Positions 17,409-44,635 of a DNA stretch of 64,000 nt are shown here, in pieces (positions within the stretch are counted from its first letter, which is position 1; the number at the start of each line of letters is the position of its first letter). The DNA lies in contig CAVRZA010000008.1 in NCBI GenBank assembly GCA_963725665.1, forward strand, positions 197,330 to 261,329, in the 5' to 3' direction. The stretch comes from an uncultured Actinomycetes bacterium. GTDB taxonomy: Bacteria > Actinomycetota > Thermoleophilia > UBA2241. Made by a program: the position numbers and the translations under genes. The notes below the pieces were generated by a model. The model ran no database searches. It was not told the origin of the DNA and saw only the letters and a list, made by a program, of their open reading frames with translations.

Positions 17409-17860
17409 CGGGCGAGCCCCTCAAGATACCGGTGATGCTCCTCGCCCCCGGCGCGCGTCTGCCCCAGCGTGCCTACGAGCACGATGCCGCCTTCGACCTG
17501 TTCGCCGTCGAGAACGCGATCGTGGCGCCGCAGCAGCGCCACGTGGTCGGCACCGGCGTGGCGCTCGGCCTGCCGCCCGGGATCGCGGCCTTGACGCTGC
17601 CGCGCTCGGGGCTCGCGGCCGAGTACGGCGTAGCCCTGGTCAACGCGCCGGGGCTCATCGATCCCGGCTATCGCGGCGAGGTGCGCATCATCCTGCTCAA
17701 CACCGACCGCCACCATCCCTTTCACGTCCATGCCGGCGACCGTATCGCGCAGCTGCTCATCGTCAACCTGACTGCCGTGAGCTTCTTCGAGACCGTGCGG
17801 CTCGACGAGACCGACCGGGGCGAACGCGGGTTCGGCTCGAGCGGCATGGCGGCTCCCTGA
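17405..17860 (+). CDS. dut: dUTP diphosphatase
   Basis: PRSGLA, PGLIDPGYRGE, GDRIAQ, RGERGFGSSG. Confidence 0.95.
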   Translation: MTGEPLKIPVMLLAPGARLPQRAYEHDAAFDLFAVENAIVAPQQRHVVGTGVALGLPPGIAALTLPRSGLAAEYGVALVNAPGLIDPGYRGEVRIILLNTDRHHPFHVHAGDRIAQLLIVNLTAVSFFETVRLDETDRGERGFGSSGMAAP

Positions 17861-28882: not shown

Positions 28883-31409
28883 CTACTCCCGGTTCTCCTC
28901 GATCACGCGGCGTACCTGACGCACGAAACGGTCGGCCATCTTCTCGCTCTCGAGCGGGTCGTTGCCCTCGGCGTAGATGTGGAAGACGGCCTCGTCGGCG
29001 TCGGGCAGGATCTGGGCCCAGCTACCGTTCTGGAACACCTTGATGCCGTCGAGCAGGCTGATCTTGCCCTTGCCGTCCTTCTGCACCTTCTGCAGACGCT
29101 CGGTCACGGTGCGCATCACGGTGCCCTTCAGCGACCAGGGACAGCCCACCGTCTTGTGCACCAGCGTGCTCGTCGGCAGCTCGGCGATCTGCTCCGAGAG
29201 CGTCTGCGCGTGCGGCGCCAGCAGCTCGAGGAGCTTGCCGAAGCTCATGATGGCGTCGAAGCCGGGCAGGAACTTGGGAAAGATGTAGCCGCCGCTCATC
29301 GTGCCGGCGAAGATCACGCCGCGCGCCGTCGAGGCGTCCATGAGGGCCGGCAGCGAGACCTTGGTGCGTTCGATCGCGACGCCGAACGGCGTCGCGATCT
29401 CCTCCGCCAGCCTCGTGACCGTGAGCGGCAGGGCGATCTTCTGTCCCTTCTTCGCCTCCTGCGAGACCAGCTTCACGAACAGCAGCAGCGCCTTCTCGAG
29501 CGGTATCTCCTCGCCCCTCTCGTCTACGATGTACATGCGCTCCGCGCCGGGTTCCAGGATGACTCCGAGATCGGCGCCCATGACCTTCACCAGGCGGCGC
29601 ACGCCCATGATGTTGCCGCCCAGCTCCTGCGAGCCCACCGCCGTGCGCATCTCGTCGGTGAAGGCGTGCAGCGAGAGCACCTCGGCGTTGAGCTTGCCGA
29701 GGACGTTGGGCAGGATCAGCGCCGCCGGCGAGTACGAGTAGTCGATGACGAGGCGATAGGCGCGGTTGCGGATGCGCTCCACGTCCCACGAGCTCGTCAG
29801 CCCACCGCACGTACAGCTCGCTCGAGCGCGAGGGGAACTGGATCTCCCCCACCTCGGTGTAGAAGGCGCGCCGGTAGTCCTGGCGGCCGTAGTACTTCTC
29901 GATGTCCTTCTGCGTCTTCTCGGTGATGGGGATGCCGGGAGGCTCGAAGAGCTGGATCTGCAGGATCTCAGGATCCCAGGACGAGACGCGCACGTGGATG
30001 CCCCCCTGCGCGTTGCCGCTCTTGATCTCGAAGCGGTTGACGGCCGCGGAGCTGACGCGCAGATCGCGCACGTTGACGCCGGTCGCGTTGAGGCCGCTGA
30101 TCATGGCTCGCTTGGTGATCCGCGAGGCCGGGTGCGGGTCGCGGCTGGTGACCACCTTGGCGCCTTTCGGGAGTGCCGTGCCGTACGCCTGCGCCACCTT
30201 CAGGGCCAGCTCGGGTGTGATGTCGACGTTGATGAGACCGACCACCCCGTCCTTGCCGAAGAGGCGCGACGTGCCGCGCGACTCCCAGATGATGCTGGAG
30301 TGGATCTGCGCTCCCGACTCCACCGTCTTGAAGGGATAGATCTTGACGTCGGGCGAGATGACGGCCTGCTCGCCGATCACGCACTCGTCACCGATCGCCG
30401 CGCCCTCGCTGATGGTGACCCCGGCGTTGATGTCGCAGTTCTTGCCGATGATTGCGCCGTAGATCTTCGTACCATTACCGATATAGACATTGGAGTCGAT
30501 CACCGAGAAGCGCGTCTCGGCGTGGCCCTTCACAACGACGTTGCTGCCCAGCACCGAGTAGGGCGCGATGCGCGCGTCGCGGTCGATCTTGGCGTAGTTG
30601 CCGATCAGCGCCGGCCCCGTCACGTTGTCGAGCGAGTCGACGTTGACGTTCTCGCCGATCCAGACGTTCTCGCCGAGGCGGATGCCGGGGATGTTGGCCT
30701 CGACCTTGCCGTCGAGCACGTCGCGGTTGGCGGCCAGATACTGCTGCAGGTTACCGATGTCCTGCCAGTAGCCGTCGACGACGGAGCCGTAGAGCGGCTT
30801 GCCGAGCTCGAGGAGCTTGGGGAAGAGCTCCTGGCTGAAGTCGTACTGCTGCCCCGCCGGGATGTACTTGAAGATCTCGGGCTCGAGCACGTAGACGCCG
30901 GTGTTGACCGTGTCGGAGAAGACCTGCCCCCACGTCGGCTTCTCGAGGAAGCGCTCGATGCGCCCCTCGTCGTCGATGACGACCACCCCGAAGTCGAGCG
31001 GGTTCTCGACGCGTTTGAGGGCGATGGTCACCATGGCGCCACGACGCTTGTGCTCGTTGACGATGGCGCTGAGGTCGAAGTCGGTGAGGGCGTCGCCCGA
31101 GATGACGATGAACGTCTCCCCCAGCTCGGCTTCGGCGTTCTTGACGCTCCCCGCCGTGCCCAGCGGCTGCTGCTCGACCGAGTAGCTCAGGTTGACACCC
31201 AGCGTCTCGCCGTCGCCGAAGTAGCCGCGGATGATCTTGGGTAGGAAGGCCACGGTGACGACGACGTCGTCGATGCCGTGGCGCTTGAGGAGCTCGATGA
31301 TGTGCTCCATGCAGGGCTTGTTGCAGACGGGCACCATCGGCTTGGGCTGGTTGCTCGTGAGCGGACGCAGGCGCGTCCCCTCTCCCCCGGCCATGACTAC
31401 GGCTCGCAT
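28883..31409 (-). CDS. Mannose-1-phosphate guanylyltransferase / phosphomannomutase-like fusion, frameshift ~29800
   Basis: [18 protein letters not shown], hexapeptide repeats, LFGKDG PMM-like region continuing in ORF 28883-29782. Confidence 0.9.
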
Positions 31410-31670
31410 ACGCCTCACCTTCGTCGCGACGGGCTGACTCGCCGGCTTCGAGCTCCCCACCACGCTGGAGCTCACTCGCCGGCGCCGATGGCCGTCGTCG
31501 CGCGACGACCGCGTACTATCGTCGCAGCGCCCGTCGGCCGTGTCGGCGAATGGCCACAGACGACATGGTTCTGACGAACTGTGGCCTGTCCCAAACAATA
31601 CCAGAAAGGGAACAGCGGCCGACCGCCGCCAAAGGAGTTCGCGGTTGTCGATTCGCGTTTCGGCGGAGGC

Positions 31671-32291
31671 CTAGGGGTGTGCGCTCCCGGGGCTCGCGCC
31701 CACGCCTCCCGACGGGCCCCCGCCCCGGCGCGCGCGCGTCTCGCGCACGCCACGCGCGAAATAGGCCGCACCGGTGGCCAAGTAGAGCGCGGCGCCGACG
31801 CAGAAGGTGACCCAGCCGACCAGGCGTAGGTCGAGGATGAACCACTCGATGGCACAGATGAGGACGAAGTTGGCGAGCTTGCCGAGCCGCTCGATCTCGA
31901 GCGGCGGCTCGCCCTTCTGGTGCCAGATCACCGCCGCCCCGATGAGGAGCAGGGCGTCGCGGACGATGAGCGGTACGACAGCCCACCAGGGCAGTGTCCC
32001 CGTCAACAACAGCGTGCTCAGGATGACGATGTAGAAGGTGCGATCGACGAGCGGATCGACGATCCGTCCGAAGCGGCTCGTGGCGCCGAAGCGGCGTGCG
32101 AGCCAGCCGTCGGCGACGTCGGACAGGGCCGCGATCAGAACAACGATCGCGGCCCCCCACGCCGCCCCGGGCGTCTCCGTCACGAAGAGCACCACGAAGA
32201 GCGGCAGCGAGGCCATGCGGCCCAGCGTGACGACGTTGGGCAGCAGGCGCACCACTCCTTGGAGGCTCGAAGAGGGGGCCGCTACGGACAT
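31671..32291 (-). CDS. CDP-alcohol phosphatidyltransferase
   Basis: PNVVTLGR, DVADGWLAR..FGRIVDPLVD. Confidence 0.9.
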   Translation of the reverse strand: MSVAAPSSSLQGVVRLLPNVVTLGRMASLPLFVVLFVTETPGAAWGAAIVVLIAALSDVADGWLARRFGATSRFGRIVDPLVDRTFYIVILSTLLLTGTLPWWAVVPLIVRDALLLIGAAVIWHQKGEPPLEIERLGKLANFVLICAIEWFILDLRLVGWVTFCVGAALYLATGAAYFARGVRETRARRGGGPSGGVGASPGSAHP

Positions 32292-32399
32292 GAAGGAAGT
32301 CTACCAGGAAGGCTCGCCGAGGCCTTTCGGCCCGCGGCCCGCGAAGCCGGCGCACCGGAGCCGGTCGGCGCGCAGCGCGTGCTACAATAGCGCTCCGGT

Positions 32400-32477
32400 C
32401 GGCGTGTGGCGCAGCCTGGTTAGCGCACTAGTCTGGGGGACTAGGGGTCGCCAGTTCAAATCTGGCCACGCCGACCA
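32400..32477 (+). tRNA. tRNA-Pro(GGG)
   Basis: Acceptor CGGCGTG/CACGCCG + ACCA, anticodon arm CTAGT-CTGGGGG-ACTAG, GTTCAAATC T loop; TACAAT -10 at 32383. Confidence 0.97.
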
Positions 32478-32540
32478 TTCTTTCCCCTGCAAAGCGCCTC
32501 TTTCCGCAAATGCCCCCCGACCCCTCGCAAGGCCGTTTTG

Positions 32541-33420
32541 CTAACGTTTTGCCAACGCCAGTTTCGCGACCCGCCCGACGGCCTCGGTCTGGAGGCCCGG
32601 CACGGCGTGCGAATAGATGTCCAACGTGACCGAGATGTTCGCGTGGCCCAGCTGGTCGGCGACCGTCTTCGGGTGCTGCTTCTCCTGAAAGGCGAGCGTC
32701 GCCCACGTATGTCGCAGATCGTGCAGGCGGATCGCCGGCAGCCCCACCTCAGCGACGAGGGCGCGAAAGGCGCTGCCCATCCAGTCGGGCCGAACCGGCA
32801 CACCGAAGCGCGTCTCCCCCTGGGCGTAGGCCGCTTCGTGCGTGAACACGTAGCCGTCGCGATCGCTCCATTCCTTGCCACGCTCGAGCTTCTGCGCCGC
32901 CTGCACCTTCTTCCAGCGATGCAGTTGCGCCACGGTGCCGTCGTCGAGAGCGACGACGCGCCGGCCGCGGGCCGTCTTCGGGGGCGATACGGCCACCTCT
33001 CCCCCAACGATCACCCTGGCCCGTTGCACCGAGGCCGTGCCCGCTTTTAGGTCGAGGTCGCTCCAGCGCAAGCCGCAGACCTCGCCTCGCCGCATCCCGG
33101 TGAGCGCCGCCGTGTACCAGAGGGCGACTTGCATAGGGTCGGCCGGCCGCGTGCGTGTGTAGGAGTACGCCTTGCCCTTGCGCTGGCGCTCCTCGCGCGT
33201 CTACGCTCGCACGCGAGCCCCTCGGCCGCTTCTAGGAAGCGACCAAGCTCGTCCGCGCTCCAGGTGCGCATCTCGGGCCGCTCCGCGTCCAGAGAGGGCG
33301 GGTCGGCATCGTCGGCGACGTTGCGGTAGACGAGGTGCCATCGTGTCGCGTCGCGCAAGGCCCGGTGGATGAGAGCGTGAACGTGGCGCGAGGCGTAGGC
33401 GCCGAGCGGGCCGTTCCCGG
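32541..33420 (-). pseudogene. Tyrosine integrase, N-terminus missing and frameshifted ~33170
   Basis: TGMRRGE, PPKT, LHDLRH, LGHAN, IYSH catalytic set; upstream frame HALIHRALRDA..RNVA..TWSADELGRFL. Confidence 0.9.
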
Positions 33421-33422
33421 CT

Positions 33423-33504
33423 AGAGCCTCCCATACGTAGAGCTGCCTTCTCAGGAGTCTCGTATCACCATGCTTCTACGCCTGTTGTGGCGGTTGTTCA
33501 AGCG
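33423..33504. repeat. 82-bp repeat, copy 1 (copy 2 at 37918-37999)
   Basis: Ungapped alignment, 13 mismatches by manual count, 24-bp identical core CTGCCTTCTCAGGAGTCTCGTATC. Confidence 0.9.
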
Positions 33505-33574
33505 TTGGGCGTGTAGGCAAGGGAGCCTGCGTGCGCTGCTGGTGGCCCGAAGGTAGGTTCAGGCGGAGTTGCGT

Positions 33575-34093
33575 TCAGCCTCGAAACGCCCAGGCGAGCA
33601 CCAGGACGAGGCCGGTCACACCGGCGAGCCGCAACGCGACTCTAGTCAGGACGAGGCCCGCTTGGAGTCGAGCCCGGTTCCGGTCCCACGGATTCTGTGT
33701 CCAGTCGCACGCGCCCTGTGCCGCCGCCCTGTGAGCTGGCAGACCCGCGGCGGTCGGCATGGGGGCAGCCTGGCCCCTCTGGCGGGCGTCGGCCTGCCGC
33801 AGGAACGCTCTCCATGCGGCGTTCGCAGCCTCCGCTGGCGGCCCGCCGGTGTCCGACCTCCCGGTAGAGGTCGCCGACGTCTCTTCCTCTCTCCGGACTG
33901 CCTCTTCTAGCTCGCCGATGTAGCCCGCCAGCCGTACGCGGCAGCGGGCGATGCCTGCTTCTCTGGTGGCTCTCCAGGCGGCGTCCTCGTCGGGGGCGGC
34001 GAGGGAGAGGTGGTTGATCTGTGTCTTCTCGTGGGCGATGAGGCGCTCCAGGCGGGCCTCTTGTCGCTCCTGCGCTGTCGGCATCGCCGGCAT
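33575..34093 (-). CDS. Hypothetical protein divergent from excisionase
   Basis: GAGGGAG RBS before ATG; helical N-terminal half; C-terminal half doubtful. Confidence 0.4.
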   Translation of the reverse strand: MPAMPTAQERQEARLERLIAHEKTQINHLSLAAPDEDAAWRATREAGIARCRVRLAGYIGELEEAVRREEETSATSTGRSDTGGPPAEAANAAWRAFLRQADARQRGQAAPMPTAAGLPAHRAAAQGACDWTQNPWDRNRARLQAGLVLTRVALRLAGVTGLVLVLAWAFRG

Positions 34094-34249
34094 GGTGTCT
34101 CCCTCATTGGCTACGCAAAACTGATGAAAACTAGCGTACCCGACGGTACGCTTGGGCAAGCCCATCATACTACCCACGTCCACTGTTGAGCCGAGGAGAA
34201 GCAAGACCAGAAGAGAGGGCGGGAATCACCGCCGCTAGAGGAGCTTGAG

Positions 34250-34429
34250 TTGGCCGAAGGCGATACCCTGCTGACACCGGAAGAGGTGGCCGAGCGGCTG
34301 TCTATTTCCGTCTACACGGTCAAGGACTGGCTACGCGCCGGGCGGATAAAGGGGGTCAAGGTCTCGCCGCGTCTGTGGCGCATCAAGGAGACCGACCTAC
34401 AGGCGTTCATCGACTCCTTGGACGACTAG
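34250..34429 (+). CDS. Excisionase-type HTH protein (59 aa, absent from ORF track)
   Basis: GAGGAG RBS, TTG start; LLTPEEVAERLSISVYTVKDWLRAGRIKGVKV..WRIKETDLQAFI. Confidence 0.9.
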   Translation: MAEGDTLLTPEEVAERLSISVYTVKDWLRAGRIKGVKVSPRLWRIKETDLQAFIDSLDD

Positions 34430-34448
34430 GAGATGAGACGGCTCATGC

Positions 34449-34511
34449 CGCTAGGGAGTGACACCGGGGGCCGATTGCGCTGGCGCTGACGAGCCGGTGG
34501 TCAGTCGCGCC
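34449..34511 (-). repeat. Dispersed ~45-60 bp repeat, inverted copy
   Basis: Reverse complement matches GGCGCGAYTGTCTACCCGCTCGTCAGCGCCRGCGTAGCCGGCCC family. Confidence 0.75.
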
Positions 34512-34776
34512 TTTGCTCCCTCAGGGGAGCCGGCGCGGTGGAGTGGTCAGCAGCCAGGCCGCGCCGGCCGACTGCACCGTAACGGCCGTGCGGCGCGTCG
34601 TGAAGACCGCTGGGGCGTCAGTCGGGTTGACGTTGGGAAGGAGCCGCGTCGTCTACCTGTCGTCGTCGTCTCAGTCGCATTCGCATTGTCGCTCGTTGGC
34701 TGCGGCACGAGGCAGAGCAACGCCGAGCCGATAGTGCCAGTGCAGGGGAACACCGAGCCAGCTTCGGCAGCGCCGG

Positions 34777-35238
34777 TTAAAGGTCCTTAGGGTCGGGAAG
34801 CGCCTCCGTGAGAACCGCCAGGAGGACGCCCGCAGAGTCGTTGTGGTCATCTTCCCGCGCGATCTCCACCGAACACTCCAGCGGCTCCTTGCGGCGACGA
34901 AGCGCCGCCGAGTACCGCGCTGCGTCCTTCTTGCGGAGGTAGCCGATCCGCTCGCCGCTCACCCAGACCCCGACGGCGTTCTTGTCGTAGGGGTTGTCGG
35001 GCTGCGGGATTAACCATGCCCTCCGCTGCCCGGTGCCGACGCGCTTGAGGGCGTCCTGGCAGTACACCTCACCGGTGATGGCGGTCCTCCTGTCGGTGAG
35101 CTGGTTCCACCGCTTGTCTGACCGAGGCGTCTCCTCGGCTATCTCGAGAATCAGACGTCGATGGCCCTCGATGGCAGCGTCTGGATTGTAGACGGGTAGG
35201 GAGAGCGGCAGCTCGCGCCTACGCGAAAACAGTCCCAC
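34777..35238 (-). CDS. HIRAN domain protein
   Basis: LIPQPDNPYDKNAVGVWVSGERIGYL; GGAGGGG RBS before GTG. Confidence 0.82.
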   Translation of the reverse strand: MGLFSRRRELPLSLPVYNPDAAIEGHRRLILEIAEETPRSDKRWNQLTDRRTAITGEVYCQDALKRVGTGQRRAWLIPQPDNPYDKNAVGVWVSGERIGYLRKKDAARYSAALRRRKEPLECSVEIAREDDHNDSAGVLLAVLTEALPDPKDL

Positions 35239-35499
35239 GATCCCCCTCCGGTTGGCGGGGACCGACGATTGATGGGACGTTGAGTGCCCTCCCACGTGTC
35301 CGAGATTCGCGTTGTGACAGGCCCCCGCCTCGTACGAGTCTGCGCTCAGAGGAGTGGTCCGACAAGGCAGTCTGGAGGGGAAGGGTAGCCTGCAGTGTCA
35401 ACGGGCGGTCAGTTCAAGGCTGGCAGCACGGCAAGGCTGCGTCTGCGAGGTCTGCGAGAGGCGAGGTCGACGAGGAGTAGGACGAGGGAGTGAGGTATC

Positions 35500-35543
35500 G
35501 GCGCGACTGTCTACCCGCTCGTCAGCGCCAGCGTAGCCGGCCC
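35500..35543 (+). repeat. Dispersed ~45-60 bp repeat
   Basis: Nearly identical to 42093-42136. Confidence 0.85.
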
Positions 35544-35684
35544 TCGCGGTAACGGGCCTCTGTGCGAGGCGAACGGCCCGGACCGGCCACCGGGTGTCCG
35601 GGCCGCTGCTCCTGACGCGGTCGCGGGTGTGGATGGGGCAACAGGCGGCGGCATGTGTCCGCCGCCCCTGAGGCCGCACCTCCG

Positions 35685-36704
35685 TTAGTAGACGATGAGC
35701 GTGTTGGAGCCCGGCGTGACCTGATTGTTGCCGGCTCTGTCCTTGGCGTAGACGAAGAAGCGATAGGTCGCCTTTGGCAGCGTGCAGTGGAAGTAGCACT
35801 GGTGGGGCCCGACCAAATTCACAAAGTACCGGTACGACTTGACTACGACTTTGGTCTTCCAGAACGCGAGGGTTCTGACCTCGATCTGCACGTTGCCACT
35901 TTCGCCGTTGGGCACGGCGTGCCGCCCCCGCTATCGGGACGGGGGCGGCGCTGCGAGGGGTATCCCAGGATGCGAGCCTTGTCTCTGTCAGTCAGGCCTC
36001 CCAAGGTCGAGGCCAACGGGCGCATGGCCCGAGTAGCGCAACCACGTACCCACGACGAGCGCGGCCAGTGCGACCAGGATCAGCCTGCGTCTCGTCGCCG
36101 CGGTCATCGGATCAGTACGGGATGGTCGTCACGTGGATGGTCCCGGCTACGCTCTTGCCGGCGACACTTTGCGGAGCCGCCTCATCGAGGTAGAAGCTCA
36201 GCCGGACGACCGCCACACTGTCGGGGATAGAACGGCGCCCCGTTGCTGGCACCGGTCGTGATGAAGTCCTGTAGTGAGCCGCTGTTGTCGAACGTGCTGC
36301 CGCTGGACGGGAAGTGGTTCATCACCCAGGACATCGGGTTGTCGGGCGCGCTTCATGAGATGCGGTACTTGACGTTGCTCAGGACGTCGGCGTCCGGGGT
36401 GCCTGTCGGCACTAACTTCACACTCATCTTCACGGGCGCCGTCGTGCCCGCCGGTGCCGTCAGCTTCACCCAGTTGTTGGCCGGCCAGGCGAACTCCCAC
36501 TCGCCACTGTCACCGGGGTTGGGTGGGTTGACCGCAACGGGCATGAGATTGTCGCAGGTGATGGACGTGTGGAATGAGATTGTCGCAGGTGATGGACGTG
36601 TGGCCCGTCTGATAGGTGACTACCAGAGAGGCAGGCGCTTGCGCCGTAGAACCCTGGAAGGGCAACGGCACGTCGCCCAACCAGGCGACTTCATCCAGCT
36701 TCAC
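35685..36704 (-). pseudogene. Fragments of secreted/surface protein gene(s)
   Basis: C-terminal beta domain YRFFVYAKDRAGNNQ..SNTLIV; upstream beta-rich frame broken by a stop and a tandem duplication. Confidence 0.5.
36543..36603. repeat. Tandem duplication, 31-bp period
   Basis: ATGAGATTGTCGCAGGTGATGGACGTGTGG twice, separated by 1 nt. Confidence 0.95.
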
Positions 36705-36831
36705 TAGTTGGCGCCCGACCGCCTCAATACACCCAGGCCGGACTCGCAGGGCGTCTCACAGACCTGATGCTCAGCAGACACGTCGACCATCTGCTGGTTT
36801 CTTCGTTTGACAGTATTCGGTGGGCGACAGA

Positions 36832-37790
36832 CTACCGCACGAATCTCACGTACGACTCCAACTGCGAGTTCTTTGCAGCAATCGTCGATGAGTCCGGCGA
36901 GAGCGTCCTTGTCGTATTCGACTCGGAGTTAACCAGACTGCTCTTCACGTCGAAGTAAGCTTCAAGAAACTCCCTCAGTCGGTCTTTGTAGGGGCAACAG
37001 GCCGTCGGGCTAGTCGTGGGGAGCCCGCGAACTCGCATATTCACGCACCCGCCATCGCATACGGGAAGAAAAAAGCACTCCCTGCATTCCGCGCGCTCGA
37101 ACGGGTCCGAATCCATCATGTATCGCATGAACAATCCGCGATTCCAGGGTCTGTCGTCCGCCAAACTGCCAATAACCATGCCCGAGTCGCTTGCATCCTG
37201 CAGGCACTTGTAGAGCTCGCCTTCGGGGCCGACAACCCAACTGCTGTTTTGCGTGGCCATGCAGCCAAGCGTCAGGCCAGGATACGTGAGTCCGTCAGCA
37301 ATGCCATAGTCGCGAAAGAGGCCAAGATGAAAGTCGCAACACTCGAGCCTGCTGAGCTGAGCCTCGGTCTCTGACGATCCCTGAGGTGGGAGCACCATGC
37401 CAGTGCTCACCACGAGCCGCTCTTCCCCGAAGCTTCGCTTGAGTTCGCTGTGGAGAGCTGGATACGCATCAGCGTTGGTTGCGTCGATGTTGACCCGCAC
37501 GTGAACAGTTCCATGCCAATGCTCAAACAGGTGGCCGATGTTGGCCATAATGACTGCGAATGTGCCGCCACCACACCTGAGCCTCCTGCGCTTGTCGTGT
37601 ACCTCCTGTGGACCATCGATTGTGACTTGGACAGCGACCACGCCCAATTGCTCCAGCTCGCGGCTCACTCGTTCACTAAGCAAGTAGCCGTTTGTTGTGA
37701 GGGTGGCACGTAGCGGCAGTCCAAGGTTCTTCAGCTTCTGGGTCAGCCTTCTCATTGTCGCGAAGCGGATCAGCGGCTCGCCGCCGAAAG
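36832..37790 (-). pseudogene. Radical SAM/SPASM protein lacking N-terminal CxxxCxxC
   Basis: FGGEPL, TTNGYLL, VTIDG..HDKRR, GELYKC, CRECFFLPVCDGGC; lower GC. Confidence 0.85.
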
Positions 37791-37917
37791 TCGCTCTCTG
37801 TCCTCCGCGTGTCTCCCGAGGCGGTCGGCCCCAGTAAGCACGAAGACCGGCCTGCGGGCCGGTCTCACCAGTGGCTCCCCGCCGGTATTGGTGGCCGCAA
37901 CGTGCCGCCGGCGGATC

Positions 37918-37999
37918 AGAGCCTCCCGTACGAAGCACTGCCTTCTCAGGAGTCTCGTATCTCCTTGCTTGTACGCCGGAGGGGGCGTTAGTTCAAGCG
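37918..37999. repeat. 82-bp repeat, copy 2
   Basis: Matches 33423-33504. Confidence 0.9.
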
Positions 38000-38324
38000 G
38001 TTGGAGGAGCGGGACGGGGACGCACCGAGCTGGTCGATGCGGTCGGCGCGGCCCGAGCCGTTGTCCACGTTGGCGACGCCAATATCGAGACCGCAGCGCT
38101 CCTCGTCGGCAAACGCTTGACGACTTAGTGGAGACGGGTGTAGACCGCCTGCGGGCCGAGCCGGCCACTAGACTCTAGCGTCCCGTCAGCGCGTGCAGGA
38201 AGGCCGTAGGAGCTCACGACTGCGGGACACGGAGGAGGTGTCTCGCATGTTCTACTGCAGCGGTTCCAGCCGCAGTGCGTTACCAGGACCGCACCTTCGG
38301 CCCCAAGCCGACTCCTCCTCCACC

Positions 38325-39933
38325 ATGAGACGTCTGAGCCCTCTCGCGCTCCTCCTCGCGCTGGTCCTGCTCGTCTTCCTGGCGGCGGCCGACGCCGCCC
38401 TGGCGCTGCCCGGCTGGTCTGTCATGGCCGCCCCCCTGGGGAAGAGCGTACGCCCGAACGCGACCGGGGCTTTCGGCGACAGCGGCGTCGTCGTGGCCGG
38501 TCAAGGAGGGACTGTCGCCGTGAGCAGCGACGGTGGCAGGACCTGGACCGACATCTCGGCCGCAGCGCTCACCTCGTCGGCCCTCAGGGGCGTCGCGTTC
38601 AGCGACGCCAAGCACGGCGTGGTCGTGGGCGACAAGACGACGATCCTCATCGGCGCCCCAGACGACCGGGGCGTGTTCGGCTGGACGGCCCCCGCCCTTC
38701 GCGACGAGGTGACGGCCGACCTGCGCGACGTGGCCCTGCAAGGCACGGTGGGCTACGCCGTCGGCACGGGAGGGCTGGTGCTGCAGACGGTCGACGGCGG
38801 CAAGACGTGGCGGCGCGAGCGCGTTGCGAGCCGGGCCAACCTGAACGCAGTCGCCATGTCGGCCGACGGCCAGATCGTGGCCGTCGTCGGAGATCAGGGC
38901 ACGGTGCTGACCAAGGAGGAGGGGAGCTGGAAGGCTGCCGAGACGAGCACCTCAGCCGATCTCCTCGACGTCGCCCTTCCCGCCGACTCGGCCCTCAACG
39001 TCGTCTATTGCTGCTCGAGCAAACGCGTCTTCTCCCTGCGGGGGGCAGGACCTCTCAAGCTTCTCGCCGTGCAACCGTCCCTCCGCGCAGGCGGCGCCAT
39101 CCACGCCCTTGCCCTGGTCGAGAGCCCCCGCAAGACCAGGCTCGTCGTCGGCGGCACGGGCGGCTGGCTCGCCGGTCTTGTCACCGGGGGGTCCGCCTGG
39201 GCAAAGCAGACGGGTGGCGCCGCGTCGACCGTGACCTCGTTGGTGGCTGCGGGCAATGGGGTCGGCTACGCCACCACCGCTGGCGGCCGCATCGAACGGA
39301 CCCTGAGCGGCGGGGCCAGGTTCACGCTGGCCCTGAAGACAAAGCCGAGCGTGAAGAACGCTGACTACAAGGCCATCATCACGACCGGCGCGAGCGTCGC
39401 ACTGAGCGGCAGCACGACGATCCTGGCTTCCGGAGTGCTGCTCCTCCAGGCACTGCCTGTCGGAGAGACGGCGTGGCAGACCGTCGCGTACGGCGACGCG
39501 GGAGCGACGACGCTGAGGGACAGTGAAACTCCCGGCAGGAACACCTCCTACCGCTTGCGCTTCACCTTCGCTGGCGCGACGGCGGCGACCGCGACCAAGG
39601 TGGCCGGTCGGCGTAAGGCACAAGGTCTCCGTCTCCACCACCAGCTATCGTCTCCCTCTGCACGGGGTCTTCAGAGTGAGGGGGTCCGTGGCGCCGACCG
39701 CACCGGCAGGGCGCTCCGTCGAGGTGTGGACCGACCGCGTCGGCGAGCGCAGGCTCGGCGCCTGGCACCGCATCCACGTCGGCTGGCGGGTGCTCCTCAC
39801 CGATGGACGCACCTTCGTCACGCGCACGTTCGGTACGCCCGTGCGCGAGACCTACCACCTCAAGATCCGCATGGCCGGCGACGGCCAACACCTGGTGGGC
39901 TGGAGCCCCCGGATCACGGTAACGGTGCGCTAG
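38325..39933 (+). CDS. Secreted YCF48/BNR-like beta-propeller protein, frameshift ~39600
   Basis: Signal peptide; SDGGRTW and TVDGGKTW Asp-box repeats; C-terminal beta domain in ORF 39523-39933. Confidence 0.75.
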
Positions 39934-40158
39934 AAGTACGTCCGACCGCCTCGCCAGCAGCGACCCGCGATACTGCTGGCTCGTCGCCTGCCGAGACGGG
40001 GCAGCAAGAACGTGCGGCGGTCCTTAGGACGACAAATGGCGGCAGGCAGTGGACCACGCAGCTCTCGCAAGCTCCCGGCACTCTCGGCGGTGTCGCCGCA
40101 GAACGACACCGCCCGGTCTTGACCACCGCCTACGTGCGGCGGCCGTCTCTGCTCTTGT

Positions 40159-40722
40159 TCAGGTAGCGCTGCACAGCGGGTCTTCGGGGTGCTGTGCGCA
40201 GTAGGTCGCCGACGCGAGCGCGCCGGGCCGCCGGCGACGGCGAGCCAGTGCCCACGCGGCGATGACGACGATGAGCGCGGCCGCGGCCGAGCCGGCAACG
40301 ATCCAGGTGGTCGTGGAAGACGTGCCCGACGAGGCAGGGGCCTGCGCGGCCGCAATCGTGCCGCTCCCTGCGACGGTGTTCGACACGTTGTTGAAGTGGT
40401 GCCGGTGCAGGATCAGGGCCTGCGCGGCCGCCTCGCGTAACGCGGTCGCCACGCTCGTGGACGACCCGCCGGGGACGTAGTTGGCGCCCCAGGCCCACCC
40501 GGTCGGCAGCTGCGCGGTCGCCACACGGGGCGCGTACGGCCCGATGCCCTGATGCTGTTGGACCTGAGCCAGCGTCGGCAGCTGCAGGGTGTTGAACGTG
40601 CTCGTGCCCGACCCCGTCCCCTGTGCAGCCTGCGCGGCCTGGACGCCCAGCGAGACCACGAGCAGCGACAACAGGAGCACGCCCGAAAAACGCACGAGCC
40701 GTTTCTGTGCTGAAGTGTGCAT
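40159..40722 (-). CDS. Secreted, C-terminally anchored hypothetical protein
   Basis: RBS GGAGG; signal peptide AQA; C-terminal TM + RRRRR. Confidence 0.7.
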   Translation of the reverse strand: MHTSAQKRLVRFSGVLLLSLLVVSLGVQAAQAAQGTGSGTSTFNTLQLPTLAQVQQHQGIGPYAPRVATAQLPTGWAWGANYVPGGSSTSVATALREAAAQALILHRHHFNNVSNTVAGSGTIAAAQAPASSGTSSTTTWIVAGSAAAALIVVIAAWALARRRRRPGALASATYCAQHPEDPLCSAT

Positions 40723-41009
40723 ATCCTCACCTCCCGGAAGCCGACGCTGCCGTCGCGGCAGGGCCAGCGACCCCTTTGAGACGGGAAACCCGACCAACAG
40801 GGGTTTCTGGCCCCCGATAGGCCCCAGATAAACCCTATCTCCGCAGGGTTAACATTTCGGTGACCGACCTCGCCCGTGCCAACTCATCGTCAGCCCTTGC
40901 AGCTTGACCGGGGCGTGCCCTACGGTCGCACCTGACCGGACGATCTGTGCGTGTGGGCGAAGTCTCGGCTCAGCACTCAGCATGGCCGGCGGGCGTGGAG
41001 GCAGCAGGC

Positions 41010-41054
41010 GCGCGACTGTCTACCCCAGCGTCCTCGCCGGCGTAGCCGGCCCCC
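41010..41054 (+). repeat. Dispersed ~45-60 bp repeat, diverged copy
   Basis: GCGCGACTGTCTACCC...CGCCGGCGTAGCCGGCCCC. Confidence 0.75.
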
Positions 41055-41230
41055 ATCGGGTAGCGTGAGCCGACGCGCTGGCGGGTTTCGGGGTGACAAT
41101 GCGTCTGCCAACATTCTGCCAACGTACCGTTGGCAATCAGGCGGTTTCGGCTGGACTGCCGTTTCGCAACTTGCCTGCAAATCGGCACCTACTGAAATCA
41201 GCTAGCACCGCTTCGGCGCCTTGTCCTGGC

Positions 41231-41277
41231 CTGGGGGACTAGGGGTCGCCAGTTCAAATCTGGCCACGCCGACCATT
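41231..41277 (+). repeat. att copy 1 (tRNA-Pro 3' half, exact)
   Basis: Identical to 32433-32479. Confidence 0.95.
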
Positions 41278-41417
41278 TCTTACCTGCAAAACGCCCCCTA
41301 TTCGCAGTCTGACGTTTCGGCCTGAGAGGGCGCTGGAAGCAACGCAGGCGGTTCGCGGTTGACGTTGCGGGGCAATAGTGACGCCGAGGGTTGCCAGCCA
41401 CTGCCAAGGAAGGACCG

Positions 41418-41603
41418 GTGCACCTCGCCTGGTTCTACTGGATCTTGATCCTCATTCTCGCGCTGGTGTTCGCGTGGATCTGCGCCGCGATAGCCGACAG
41501 CAAGAAGCGCAGCGGCCTGGGCTTGGGCATCTTGGGCTTCTTCGCCTTCATCATCATCTTCATCATCACATTCAACGTCATCCTTGCCCTGCCCACGAAC
41601 TGA
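41418..41603 (+). CDS. Small two-TM membrane protein
   Basis: AGGA RBS, GTG; hydrophobic..AIADSKKRSG..hydrophobic. Confidence 0.65.
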   Translation: MHLAWFYWILILILALVFAWICAAIADSKKRSGLGLGILGFFAFIIIFIITFNVILALPTN

Positions 41604-41762
41604 GGGTCACGGCCGGCGCGGTGGAGTCTTCAGCGACAAGGCCCGGCCGTAGCCTAGCGCCCCGCCAGCGCCCGCAAAAGGCCATCAGAGGACGCTGCGG
41701 GTTGACGTTGCCAGAACCGTATACTAGGTTATCGCGGTCAGGCCCTTGGTACGGGAGCCATC

Positions 41763-42053
41763 GTGGATTCGACGTGGATGAGCCTTCTGCTCCCCATCCT
41801 CATCATCGTGGATCTGCTCCTGTTCGCCCTCGTCGTTCTGCTCCGGTATAGGGCTGCCGTTCGCCGCTACGACCGACGCCCGACGGTGAGCGCCGTCCCT
41901 TTGCCGCCAGCCGAGGGGCGGGACGACAAGACGGCTGCCGGGCAGTGGTCCTGGAGTGACGCCTCCCGCGCTTCGCAGGCCTACTGGAGACAAGGCCTCC
42001 CGCGCCGCCACCGGTCCCGACTCTTCCGCCGACACCGCCACCGGGCGGCCTAA
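41763..42053 (+). CDS. Small single-TM protein
   Basis: GGGAG RBS; N-terminal hydrophobic helix. Confidence 0.5.
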   Translation: MDSTWMSLLLPILIIVDLLLFALVVLLRYRAAVRRYDRRPTVSAVPLPPAEGRDDKTAAGQWSWSDASRASQAYWRQGLPRRHRSRLFRRHRHRAA

Positions 42054-42092
42054 CCGGTCCCCGTCTCCTCGCCACGAAACGGCGGGTACGGG

Positions 42093-42151
42093 GGCGCGAT
42101 TGTCTACCCGCTCGTCAGCGCCGGCGTAGCCGGCCCCGTCTCACCCTAGCG
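42093..42151 (+). repeat. Dispersed ~45-60 bp repeat
   Basis: Matches 35500, 41010 and (inverted) 34449 copies. Confidence 0.85.
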
Positions 42152-42379
42152 CCCGCCAACGCTTGCAGGAAGCCGCTGGAGGGCTGGCGCGGTTGACGTT
42201 GGCACCATCCCTCGAGGCGCCCCTCAAGTGCGGAAGAATCTGCGGAAGACGAGGGGACACTGAGGGCCGACAGACGGCGGCGGCGCGCGTCAGTATCCGA
42301 ACGAATAGCCTGCGTACAGCACGTTTCTATGTGGACGGGGTAACACGGGGCAACACACGGCGTCACGCCTAACCAGTTA

Positions 42380-42427
42380 TCTGGGGGACAAGGGGTCGCC
42401 AGTTCAAATTCGGCCACGCCGACCATT
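42380..42427 (+). repeat. att copy 2 (tRNA-Pro 3' half, 3 substitutions)
   Basis: TCTGGGGGACaAGGGGTCGCCAGTTCAAATtcGGCCACGCCGACCATT. Confidence 0.92.
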
Positions 42428-42772
42428 TCCATTTCTCACAGCACGTCACTGATGCCGCATGCGTGACGGAGTCGCTGGCCGGCGGCGGGACACGGCTCTG
42501 CGGGCGTATCAGCGTCTTAGTTGTCCCTGCAGTGCGTCTGCTCGCAGCGCCGCAGAACGTACTTCCGGTAGCCTTCCAGGACGCTCCCCACCCGCCGATG
42601 CGCGCGGGAGACATCCACTTCACGGTCCGCGCGCGGCTCCGGTTCCACATCCAGCTCCACAAACCCTGACGAACAGGCTGGCCGCGCTCTGCGCCGGGTG
42701 CCCAGGCGGCTGCTCGGCCCGTTCTTGGGAGGTCCCGCAGAAGCCTCAGCTACCGCCGAAGCGGTCGGCCGA

Positions 42773-44635
42773 CTACGCCTCCGTTTCCTCACCCGGGCGC
42801 ATCCGCGCGCGCCGTGCCACGAGCACCACCGCGCCCACGGCGACGACGACGCCGGCGATTGCGAGTCCGTCCCACCGCGTCCCGGGCTGCGCTGGAGCAG
42901 AGGCCGTGCGAGGCCGCGCAAACAGGTAGCTGTCGATGATCGGATGCACTCCTACCGCCGCGCCAACACCGGCCGGCGCACGGACCCAGCCCTCCCACTT
43001 CGCCACGTTCCACGCGTTGATGCGTGACGGCTCGGCGAGGAAGATCATTGGCGTCTGTTCGTACATCAACTGCTGCATGCGGTCGATGATCTGCTTGCGC
43101 TTCTCGGGGTCGATCGTCGACTGCTGCTCTGTGAAGAGGCGGTCGTACTCCTCGTTCGACCAGTTCGTGTCGCTCCAGCTCCCGATCTCGCTCGTGGTGA
43201 ACACCGAGAGCGTGAAGTTGGGATCGAGCTCGCTGTTCCAGCCCCACAGGAAGAGATCGTAGTCGGGCGCGAACTGCTTGCCTTTCTTGTCCCACATGCG
43301 ATCCATGAGGACGCCGGTGTCGAGGACCTCGTACTTCACCTTGAGCCCGACCTGGTGCAACCAGCCGGTTATCAGCTTGCCCGCAGTCTGCTCATTCGGT
43401 TCTGTGGCGATGGCCCAGAGACGCAGGGTGATCGGCTCGCCCTTGAACTCGCGCAGCCCGTCGCCGTTCGTGTCTCGGTAGCCCGCAGCATCGAGCTCGG
43501 CTTTCGCCTTCTCGAGGTCGAAGGGGTAGCGCTCGCCGGCGGGCGGAGTCCAGTGCCAGTCCGGGTCGACCCAGTACTGCGAGACGAGTGTCGTCTCGCC
43601 GGGTCGGGCCAGACCGAAGTAAGCCACGCGGCAGATCTGCTCCTTGTCGATGGCGTAGTTCAAAGCCCGGCGGAAGGCGGGATCGAGCAGCACCGGATTC
43701 CCTTGCGAAGCAGGGCCGGTGTAGCAGTTGAACCCCAGGTCGTGCACCACCAGCTGCGGGTTCTGCGTCGACAGGTCCAGATCTCTGTCGTTTCTCAGCG
43801 TCCGAAGCTGCGCCAGAGGCAGCTTGGTCGCCGCCTGGAGCGCGCCCGAGCGCAGGTCCATCTGCATGCTATCTGGGCTCTGGTACATCTGCAGGATGAG
43901 CTCGTCGACTTTGGGAGCGCCGCGCCAGTACTGCTTGTTGGCCACCAGCCGGACGTACTTGTTCGGTCGATACTCGACGACCTGGAAAGGACCCGTACCG
44001 ATCACGGGCGGCTCGTTGCGGTAGGTGTCGGCCGCCGCCTTCGGGTCGATGTGCGACCAGATGTGCTCGGGAAGGATCGGTACACCGAGCTCGAGCATGT
44101 TGGCTTTGGGGCGCGAGCAGACGAACCGCACGGTGTAGGGATCGACTGCCACCACACGCTCGATGAACGTCGTGTAGCCGGTGAAGCCCCCCATCTTGTT
44201 CTTGATGACATAGTCGAACGTGAACGCGACGTCCTTGGAGGAGAACGGTCGCCCGTCCTGCCACGTTACGCCGCGCCGCAGCGTGAAGGTCCACGTCTTG
44301 CCGTCAGGTGAGTGGCTCCAGGTGGCGGCGAGGCCCGGTTTCGACGTCAGAGTCTCCGCGTCGTACCTGGTCAGGAAGTCGTAGTTGAGCGCGTAGATCT
44401 CGAGCGCCGTGCCCATCTGTCCGACGAAGGGGTTGAGGCTCTCCGGGTCGTCCGTCCAGCCAACGCGCAGCACGGTCGCGGTACCCGGTGCTACCGTGGG
44501 AGAGGTCGCGAGAGCGGTCGTGAGCGCCCAGCCGAGCATGATCGCCAGGCAGCCGACGAGGATCAGCGCGGCATGGCGAGCTAGTCTGGTTGTGGCGCCG
44601 ACGATGCCGCCGGTTCCCCCCGGGGTGTTCGTCAT
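42773..44635 (-). CDS. ABC transporter substrate-binding protein family 5 with C-terminal TM anchor
   Basis: PGLAATWSHSPDGKTWTFTLR..WQDG..DVAFTF, IGTGPF, FRRALNYAIDK. Confidence 0.92.
   Translation of the reverse strand: MTNTPGGTGGIVGATTRLARHAALILVGCLAIMLGWALTTALATSPTVAPGTATVLRVGWTDDPESLNPFVGQMGTALEIYALNYDFLTRYDAETLTSKPGLAATWSHSPDGKTWTFTLRRGVTWQDGRPFSSKDVAFTFDYVIKNKMGGFTGYTTFIERVVAVDPYTVRFVCSRPKANMLELGVPILPEHIWSHIDPKAAADTYRNEPPVIGTGPFQVVEYRPNKYVRLVANKQYWRGAPKVDELILQMYQSPDSMQMDLRSGALQAATKLPLAQLRTLRNDRDLDLSTQNPQLVVHDLGFNCYTGPASQGNPVLLDPAFRRALNYAIDKEQICRVAYFGLARPGETTLVSQYWVDPDWHWTPPAGERYPFDLEKAKAELDAAGYRDTNGDGLREFKGEPITLRLWAIATEPNEQTAGKLITGWLHQVGLKVKYEVLDTGVLMDRMWDKKGKQFAPDYDLFLWGWNSELDPNFTLSVFTTSEIGSWSDTNWSNEEYDRLFTEQQSTIDPEKRKQIIDRMQQLMYEQTPMIFLAEPSRINAWNVAKWEGWVRAPAGVGAAVGVHPIIDSYLFARPRTASAPAQPGTRWDGLAIAGVVVAVGAVVLVARRARMRPGEETEA

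Follow-up and report, generated by a model that had tools for sequence, protein, structure and literature searches.

What are the short words that recur ahead of small, mutually unrelated open reading frames (ORFs) downstream of a tRNA-Pro gene in an uncultured thermoleophilian actinobacterium? The locus lies in a 64,000-nucleotide (nt) stretch of DNA, here called the window (C8:197330-261329, contig CAVRZA010000008.1 of assembly GCA_963725665.1), and the genome scanned with it comprises 3.73 Mb in 12 contigs and is 97.5% complete; positions without a contig prefix are those of the window. A preliminary description, made from the letters alone, had placed the 11-mer GGTTGACGTTG at 34625, 41357, 41700 and 42191 in one orientation and had raised the possibility of an undescribed gene-capture system tied to tRNA-integrating elements. 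Exact matches are found on the + strand at all four positions (n = 4). We find that this word forms the conserved 3' terminus of a longer unit, a repeated non-coding spacer module of 60-130 nt. On what this module does we are more tentative: with a probability of roughly 45%, it combines a terminator with a promoter/operator in one portable spacer, which doubles as a homology patch for ordinary recombination.

With up to one mismatch allowed, the window holds seven matches to GGTTGACGTTG against 0.76 ± 0.71 expected, a number attained in 0 of 100 shuffles; the three matches with one mismatch lie at 17758(-), 41573(-) and 57833(+). The whole genome contains nine exact copies (seven forward and two reverse), compared with 0 + 1 for the reversed word as a control. 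Beyond the window, two exact copies share the upstream tail described below, at C2:148119 and C2:538105. The remaining three have no upstream similarity, and two of these are inside long ORFs with a high G+C content at third codon positions (GC3); for the third, a placement inside a high-GC3 ORF was not confirmed by the filter used.

The similarity between copies extends upstream of the word, as had been proposed: CCTAGCGCCC..GCCA is present in both the 41700 and 42191 copies, and GAAG.CCGCTGG in both 34625 and 42191. The general plan of the module is an approximately 50-nt repeat, termed D2, or a GC hairpin, followed by a tail of approximately 60 nt and then the 11-mer. Type A modules (D2, tail and 11-mer) are those at 42191 and C2:148119. 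In type B modules (34625, 41700 and C2:538105), D2 is replaced by a GC hairpin of 11-12 bp. The copy at 41357 has a short tail only. The modules and module fragments of the window are as follows.

34465..34517, - strand: D2 repeat, inverted, directly upstream of module copy 1 (nhmmer D2 profile, E 8e-6; blastn).
34529..34635, + strand: module copy 1, type B, with an 11-bp GC hairpin (34529-34570), tail and 11-mer (34625-34635).
38169..38215, + strand: tail-like copy without the 11-mer, upstream of an ORF of 657 amino acids (aa) (profile matches; 91% over 35 nt to C2:148074-148108).
41003..41101, + strand: worn type A module, with D2, a shortened tail and GGGGTGACAATG at 41090-41101 (D2 profile, E 1.3e-12; alignment with the duplicate on C1).
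41310..41367, + strand: partial site TGACGTTT (41310-41317), short tail and 11-mer copy 2 (41357-41367).
41604..41710, + strand: module copy 3, type B, with hairpin, tail and 11-mer (41700-41710).
42087..42201, + strand: module copy 4, type A, with D2, tail and 11-mer (42191-42201; 83% to C2:148018-148131).

Compared with its C2 counterpart, the hairpin of module copy 3 lacks 9 nt in the 3' arm. Across the six exact copies that bear a tail, mean tail identity is 51%, and 8 of 68 tail columns are invariant compared with 11 of 11 in the word, a contrast that is inflated because these six copies were picked by exact match to the word. Worn copies depart from it: a profile search beyond the window recovers C2:537704, which reads GGTTGACGGTT, and C2:537754, which reads GGTTGAGGTTG; the worn module at 41003-41101 ends in GGGGTGACAATG, and a further worn copy at C2:146943 is without the word altogether, as at 38169-38215. 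Related strains from two metagenome runs carry a T>A change within the word, at 41709.

D2 is itself dispersed, with 14 genome copies at E < 0.01, one of them inverted and many near tRNA genes. Its copies in the window, none of which has an Rfam match, are at 34465-34517(-), 35494-35549, 41003-41058 and 42087-42142. We considered D2 as the coding sequence of a peptide tail and dropped this idea because the upstream frames differ among copies.

The preliminary description had drawn three of the word's copies as bulged hairpins. Such structures can be drawn, yet six modules folded as RNA are no more stable than their dinucleotide shuffles (200 shuffles each; z -0.45 to +1.52). A scan of 31000-44000 against Rfam 15, with E up to 1, finds nothing on the modules and reports only the tRNA and a c-di-GMP-II-GAG riboswitch.

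Small ORFs encoding membrane proteins or lipoproteins follow three of the four window sites.

34647..34790, + strand: remnant of an ORF with a lipoprotein signal (RRLPVVVVSVAFALSLVGC...), starting 12 nt after the 11-mer (hydropathy).
41418..41603, + strand: ORF1, 61 aa, two hydrophobic helices, with a GGAAGGA ribosome-binding site (GC3 0.87; hydropathy).
41763..42053, + strand: ORF2, 96 aa, one N-terminal hydrophobic helix, with a GGGAG ribosome-binding site (GC3 0.81; hydropathy).

The start codons of ORF1 and ORF2 lie 50 and 52 nt past the 11-mer, respectively, and the type B hairpin of copy 3 begins 9 nt beyond the ORF1 stop. On C2, a small membrane ORF at C2:147317 likewise precedes the module at C2:148119. 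A truncated lipoprotein had been suspected after the 34625 site, and the RRLPVVVVSVAFALSLVGC signal there indeed lacks a usable start: there is no in-frame ATG or GTG, and the sole TTG leaves 5 residues before the Cys. Neither this remnant nor ORF2 matches any family. ORF1 has paralogs in the genome, a second copy on C2 and a more distant third at C6:9927. Its homologs number 4 among 5.8 billion proteins, none is found in viral contigs, and a profile search recovers homologs in 21 of 88 relatives. No tRNA or module lies near the seven ORF1 loci inspected in relatives or near the third copy of this genome; the island copies of ORF1 therefore look like recruited genes placed behind the module. 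For ORF1 of the window compared with that of C2, the ratio of nonsynonymous to synonymous substitution rates (dN/dS) comes to 0.66; the 16 differences behind it are too few to rely on.

The 3' boundary of the module is most apparent where copies from different parts of the genome are aligned. Positions 41310-41710 are 86% identical to C2:537707-538115, a block that takes in the 41357 site together with ORF1 and has the final G of the 41700 site as its last base. Past this site, the window and C2 sequences are unrelated. The start of the block, at 41310, falls inside the partial site (TGACGTTT versus GGT-TGACGGTT). In a second pair, 42091-42203 and C2:148018-148131 (83%), the alignment ends 2 nt beyond the word. 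The third pair is a recent 1-kb duplicate, 40086-41086 versus C1:58823-59895 (99.8% and 96.7%), for which alignment is lost in the worn tail; TGACAATG is common to the two with divergence afterwards, and it is a weaker breakpoint case than the other two pairs. Variable cargo after a fixed breakpoint, the check proposed with the original observation, is thus borne out inside this genome, in two pairs at no more than 2 nt from the GTTG end and roughly in the third. Related genomes yield no convincing copies. Other breaks in the same islands, at 40964, 35612 and about 38211, are away from any site, and the one at 40964 is a loose end in three metagenome runs too.

Two further observations concern the 1-kb block. 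It contains a 212-aa ORF without a family match and overwrites the window's 657-aa ORF over its final ~27 codons. It also occurs, at about 80%, at C6:438519-439401, in a 1.34-kb islet flanked by a 47-nt tRNA-Met repeat.

The six exact copies that bear a tail sit in three regions downstream of tRNA genes, all reading away from the tRNA. In the window, the region is delimited by copies of the tRNA-Pro 3' end, which form attachment (att) repeats.

32400..32477, + strand: tRNA-Pro(GGG) gene, the 3' ~50 nt of which (32428-32477) constitute the left att repeat (ARAGORN; Rfam tRNA, 60.8 bits).
32541..33434, - strand: tyrosine integrase stump (PF00589, E 1.3e-20 on a 197-aa ORF at 32541-33134; three-frame translation).
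34250..34429, + strand: HTH_17 excisionase-like gene (PF12728, E 1.4e-14).
41226..41275, + strand: tRNA-Pro 3' end, copy 2, bounding island 1 on the right and island 2 on the left (92% to 32433-32498).
42376..42425, + strand: tRNA-Pro 3' end, copy 3, bounding island 2 on the right (94% to 32432-32479).

Because the tRNA-Pro 3' end is repeated twice more, there are two islands in tandem, island 1 at 32478-41225 and island 2 at 41276-42375. Features of tRNA-integrated islands found here are the 3'-end direct repeats, an adjacent, frameshifted integrase and an excisionase-like gene. The catalytic domain of the integrase stump and the segment preceding it are in different frames, and no N-terminal arm-binding part is recognizable. 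Further cargo of island 1 comprises a HIRAN-domain ORF, a radical-SAM/SPASM maturase behind a riboswitch and the 657-aa ORF, which encodes a secreted protein with BNR repeats. Island 2 measures 1.1 kb and lacks an integrase. Three of the four window sites are located in it, along with the two small membrane ORFs, in the order site, membrane ORF, site, membrane ORF, site that had been described beforehand, all between the tRNA-Pro repeats at 41226-41275 and 42376-42425. Of the two regions on C2, that of the tRNA-Met at C2:536755 is flanked by a 46-nt repeat of the tRNA 3' end at C2:538276-538321, and for that of the tRNA-Leu (C2:145623) no repeat of the tRNA 3' end was found. The suggested tie to tRNA-integrating elements therefore holds up well, in that all tail-bearing exact copies are downstream of tRNAs and 3'-end repeats flank two of the three regions. 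These islands are remnants of tyrosine-integrase elements inserted successively into tRNA genes.

Some neighboring features of island 1 deserve mention in their own right. The c-di-GMP-II-GAG riboswitch (37848-37935, - strand; 66.2 bits, E 1.1e-11) stands ahead of the radical-SAM/SPASM peptide maturase (36832-37938), which is N-terminally truncated, and a 90% identical copy of the riboswitch/maturase region is found at C8:61658-61792 of the same genome. An 87-nt repeat (83%) at 33423-33509 and 37918-38004 lies upstream of the integrase stump and of the riboswitch and maturase, which suggests that one 5' region has been reused or recombined. Two tandem 31-nt copies (97%) are present at 36540-36601, within or beside a 154-aa ORF. 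Elsewhere, the 3' 46 nt of a tRNA-Phe match at 100% between C2:578775-578850 and C3:35244-35289, and may mark a large integrated element that spans a contig break.

The block common to the tRNA-Pro and tRNA-Met islands retains its internal site and the same order of parts, so no shuffling of order is seen. The lineage is present in metagenomes from wetlands, peat and soils, and strains were compared through short Logan contigs from four metagenome runs. In related strains, contigs run across 41679-42009 and 42023-42648 with unchanged cargo. These contigs show no joints at the sites, and among the loose ends listed none is at 41367, 41710 or 42201.

Beyond this genome, no convincing copy of the module was found in 88 relatives, species-representative genomes, viral contigs or metagenome contigs of the Joint Genome Institute (JGI). 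A 941-nt DNA query gave weak matches in 2 of 40 relatives, a 61-nt D2-like piece (78%) and a 55-nt piece. The pattern GCAGGAAG-N16-20-11-mer occurs in at least 116 stretches of species-representative genomes; among the matches listed, none meets the tail or D2 profile at E <= 1e-3, and we therefore take these to be chance hits. In viral contigs, the D2-plus-site pattern is absent (0 matches) and the tail pattern occurs three times, never with a profile match; the JGI contigs contain one pattern match, in a coding-like context and without a profile match. A sequence-only covariance model of tail and site matched 18 of the 88 relatives at E <= 0.01 (best 4.7e-5). Eleven of these loci were inspected, none of which has a tRNA: four represent one conserved coding region, four are one orthologous non-coding element in which similarity is confined to the first two-thirds of the tail, two are chance-like, and the eleventh (L136) has GGGTGACGTTG in a divergent intergenic region.

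The 61-nt D2-like piece occurs in one relative of another genus (L002). A non-coding element conserved at an orthologous locus in four genomes of a related genus (L139-L142) reads CCTAGCG..CGCCAGCGC..GCA.GGG, matching the first two-thirds of the tail, and has no 11-mer.

How might a module with these properties work? We favor, tentatively, the portable regulatory spacer introduced at the outset; its promoter/operator and terminator roles, and recombination as the mechanism by which it spreads, are what we infer. The module would separate co-oriented genes for small envelope proteins in short, decayed islands. Its 5' part, either the GC hairpin or D2, would close the upstream transcription unit, and the tail and 11-mer would carry a promoter and/or operator for the gene starting ~50 nt downstream. 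A candidate promoter of the extracytoplasmic function (ECF) type is provided by the pair GGAA-N19/20-GTT, from which transcription would start at about the module end, in keeping with the loss of conservation at that point. The module is almost the only sequence common to otherwise unrelated islands, and could therefore act as a homology patch at which ordinary recombination would exchange downstream sequence; sharp boundaries after GTTG would then arise without a dedicated cassette recombinase.

The putative ECF-type pair, GGAA with the word's GTT following at a distance of 19 or 20 nt, is seen in four of the six exact copies and in both copies with one mismatch. The optimum for Mycobacterium tuberculosis SigH is given in an excerpt of PMC4803200 as GGAAYR-N17-18-GTT, with GGAA and GTT 19 bp apart, and the rule for SigH/SigR-type promoters is also given as GGAA(T/C) with GTT (PMC6338062). 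Searching the genome with GGAA[GC]-N17-19-GGTTGA revealed no enrichment outside the modules.

Several results weigh against the regulatory spacer. The -35 element reads GGAAG rather than GGAAC/T and is missing in two of the six exact copies. The SigH rule that we used is an actinobacterial one, and WhiB was not found in this genome, which by itself would point to an organism outside that group. Upstream of the single ZAS-linked ECF gene that was found (C11:395599), GGAA..GTT is absent. A scan for the σ70 consensus likewise returns 0 sites in 41200-42500 and 0 in 34300-34900. No ORF follows the 42191 and C2:538105 sites before the att repeat, 174 and 160 nt on, respectively, and the module hairpins are without a T-run. 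Eleven invariant bases exceed what a sigma-factor element needs. Finally, a recombination site or a transposon end would account just as well for breaks at the very end of the module and inside the 41310 partial site.

The last of these points leads to the alternatives. One is that the module is a non-autonomous mobile element, either similar to miniature inverted-repeat transposable elements (MITE-like) or one-ended, that would terminate in the 11-mer on its 3' side and be inserted between genes by a transposase acting in trans and possibly now lost. In its favor are the sharp and identical 3' boundary with variable 5' parts, the dispersal of D2 in 14 copies including an inverted one, the lipoprotein gene cut off right past module copy 1, and the subterminal GC hairpin of type B copies. 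Nevertheless, we regard it as unlikely. Terminal inverted repeats are not evident when the first 25 nt are compared with the reverse complement of the last 25 in five modules (best 8-10 of 25), and no convincing target duplication was seen by eye. The genome contains neither a Y1/HUH transposase (Y1_Tnp) nor a serine recombinase (Resolvase). None of the nine exact copies of the 11-mer belongs to an autonomous element with the same end or stands beside a transposase-sized ORF, a comparison that did not include searches for the DDE, IS91 and IS110 families. Full modules are also confined to the three tRNA-adjacent regions rather than being spread through the genome.

Less probable still is a cassette system, in which the 11-mer would be the crossover site of a trans-acting recombinase, presumably a tyrosine recombinase, and each unit of 5' leader, small ORF, variable module and 11-mer would be an exchangeable cassette. 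Its appeal is that, in two pairs, islands at different tRNAs lose their homology no more than 2 nt from the 11-mer, that this homology sets in within the partial site at 41310, and that the layout, with a variable element of 60-130 nt and its fixed 3' word behind the ORF, resembles a cassette with its attC site. In four modules an upstream CGYCARC is able to pair with GTTGACG, and the cargo genes are mutually unrelated. Tyrosine recombinases are not lacking, with 18 matches in the genome, many of them fragments and several intact, such as that at C2:582078-583211. However, none of these genes adjoins an array, and the local integrase is a stump. Across the whole genome, no integron integrase exceeds the cut-off (TIGR02249; best 85.9 versus 265 bits, on contig C3), and the absence of serine recombinases applies here as well.

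The core R' site of attC is GTTRRRY, and the inverse core is RYYYAAC. After GTT, the four window copies read GGGA, GCGG, GCCA and GGCA, none of which fits RRRY; the misfit to GTTRRRY and the absence of IntI that had been pointed out in the preliminary description are thus both upheld. In addition to the misfit of the word, the modules fold at the level of shuffles, the block shared between islands retains its internal site and order, strain contigs bridge two sites with the same cargo, the breaks at 40964, 35612 and about 38211 are off-site, and no copies were found outside the genome. The undescribed gene-capture system originally suggested therefore fares poorly, the 11-mer being the end of a longer module, with no candidate recombinase near the arrays and folding at chance. 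We give equally little weight to an undescribed, integron-independent exchange in which integrase-less tRNA islets would collect and swap single small envelope genes, each with its own 60-130-nt recombination element, through a tyrosine recombinase supplied in trans from another part of the genome or from a visiting element.

It is similarly improbable that the 11-mers are binding sites of the integration machinery, that is, integrase arm-type sites or sites for the HTH_17 excisionase left in the arms of the elements. Eleven conserved base pairs are a typical length for an arm-type or regulator site, and the positions are suggestive: 41357 lies 82 nt past an att repeat, 42191 and C2:538105 lie 174 and 160 nt before att repeats, and copy 34625 is about 200 nt beyond the excisionase gene. 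Against this, islands at three different tRNA genes imply different integrases, and similarity between modules reaches 60-110 nt upstream, well beyond 11 nt. The distances between sites, 343 and 491 nt, exceed what a single intasome would span; for one copy the nearest att repeat is 2.1 kb away, and the stretches that separate attR from the last site show no relationship between two islands (score -2 versus a shuffle mean of -4.2 ± 4.6). No exact copy lies near the genome's intact integrase genes. The other alternative named in the preliminary description beside integrase arm sites, a plain σ70 -35 element in TTGACG, fails in view of the empty consensus scan and of the finding, by eye, of TANNNT at 16-18 nt in just one of six copies (41700; TAGGTT, 17 nt).

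If the modules are regulatory spacers only, this locus is an ordinary and tidy example of mosaicism in decaying element remnants beside tRNA genes, in which brief stretches of conserved non-coding DNA allow unrelated cargo genes to be joined anew and perhaps brought under one regulator. If instead a dedicated recombinase lies behind the fixed break, it would represent a gene-cassette system distinct from the integrons, carried by an uncultured lineage of soils and wetlands. The present data do not separate these two readings, and the restriction of the module family, so far, to a single genome narrows its reach and makes it harder to test.

The locus may be compared with several known systems. 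As in integron arrays, small ORFs of one orientation are each followed by a variable element of 60-130 nt, and homology breaks at the conserved word at the 3' end of this element. In contrast to integron arrays, there is no IntI, no fit to GTTRRRY, no folding signal and no attI or Pc context, and the arrays occupy tRNA-flanked islets. The resemblance to SigH/SigR-type ECF promoters lies in the GGAA 19-20 nt before GTT in six of eight copies and in downstream genes that encode envelope proteins; the fifth base is G, however, two copies have no -35, the genome is without WhiB, and the promoter here is putative.

The islands themselves resemble the tycheposons of Prochlorococcus. Excerpts of that work (bioRxiv 10.1101/2020.12.28.424599) describe a full tRNA followed by partial copies, with new elements pushing older ones outward and with fragmented integrases and degraded older elements left in place. 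The tRNA-Pro gene here is similarly followed by two copies of its 3' end, a broken integrase and a 1.1-kb islet without an integrase. Unlike the islands as those excerpts describe them, the present ones are interspersed with copies of a spacer module that ends in a fixed word.

The modules may be compared, finally, with putative mobile promoters (Nijveen, Matus-Garcia and van Passel, 2012; PMC3575422), which according to excerpts of that paper are homologous upstream sequences before unrelated genes, some with other regulatory motifs, whose way of moving is unknown. The screen described there required at least 46 of 50 identical bases, whereas the tails here average ~51% and the best pair reaches 83%, and the promoter role of our module is a predicted one. 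With the putative mobile promoters as the excerpts present them, the modules have in common their essential arrangement, homologous non-coding sequence placed ahead of non-homologous genes.

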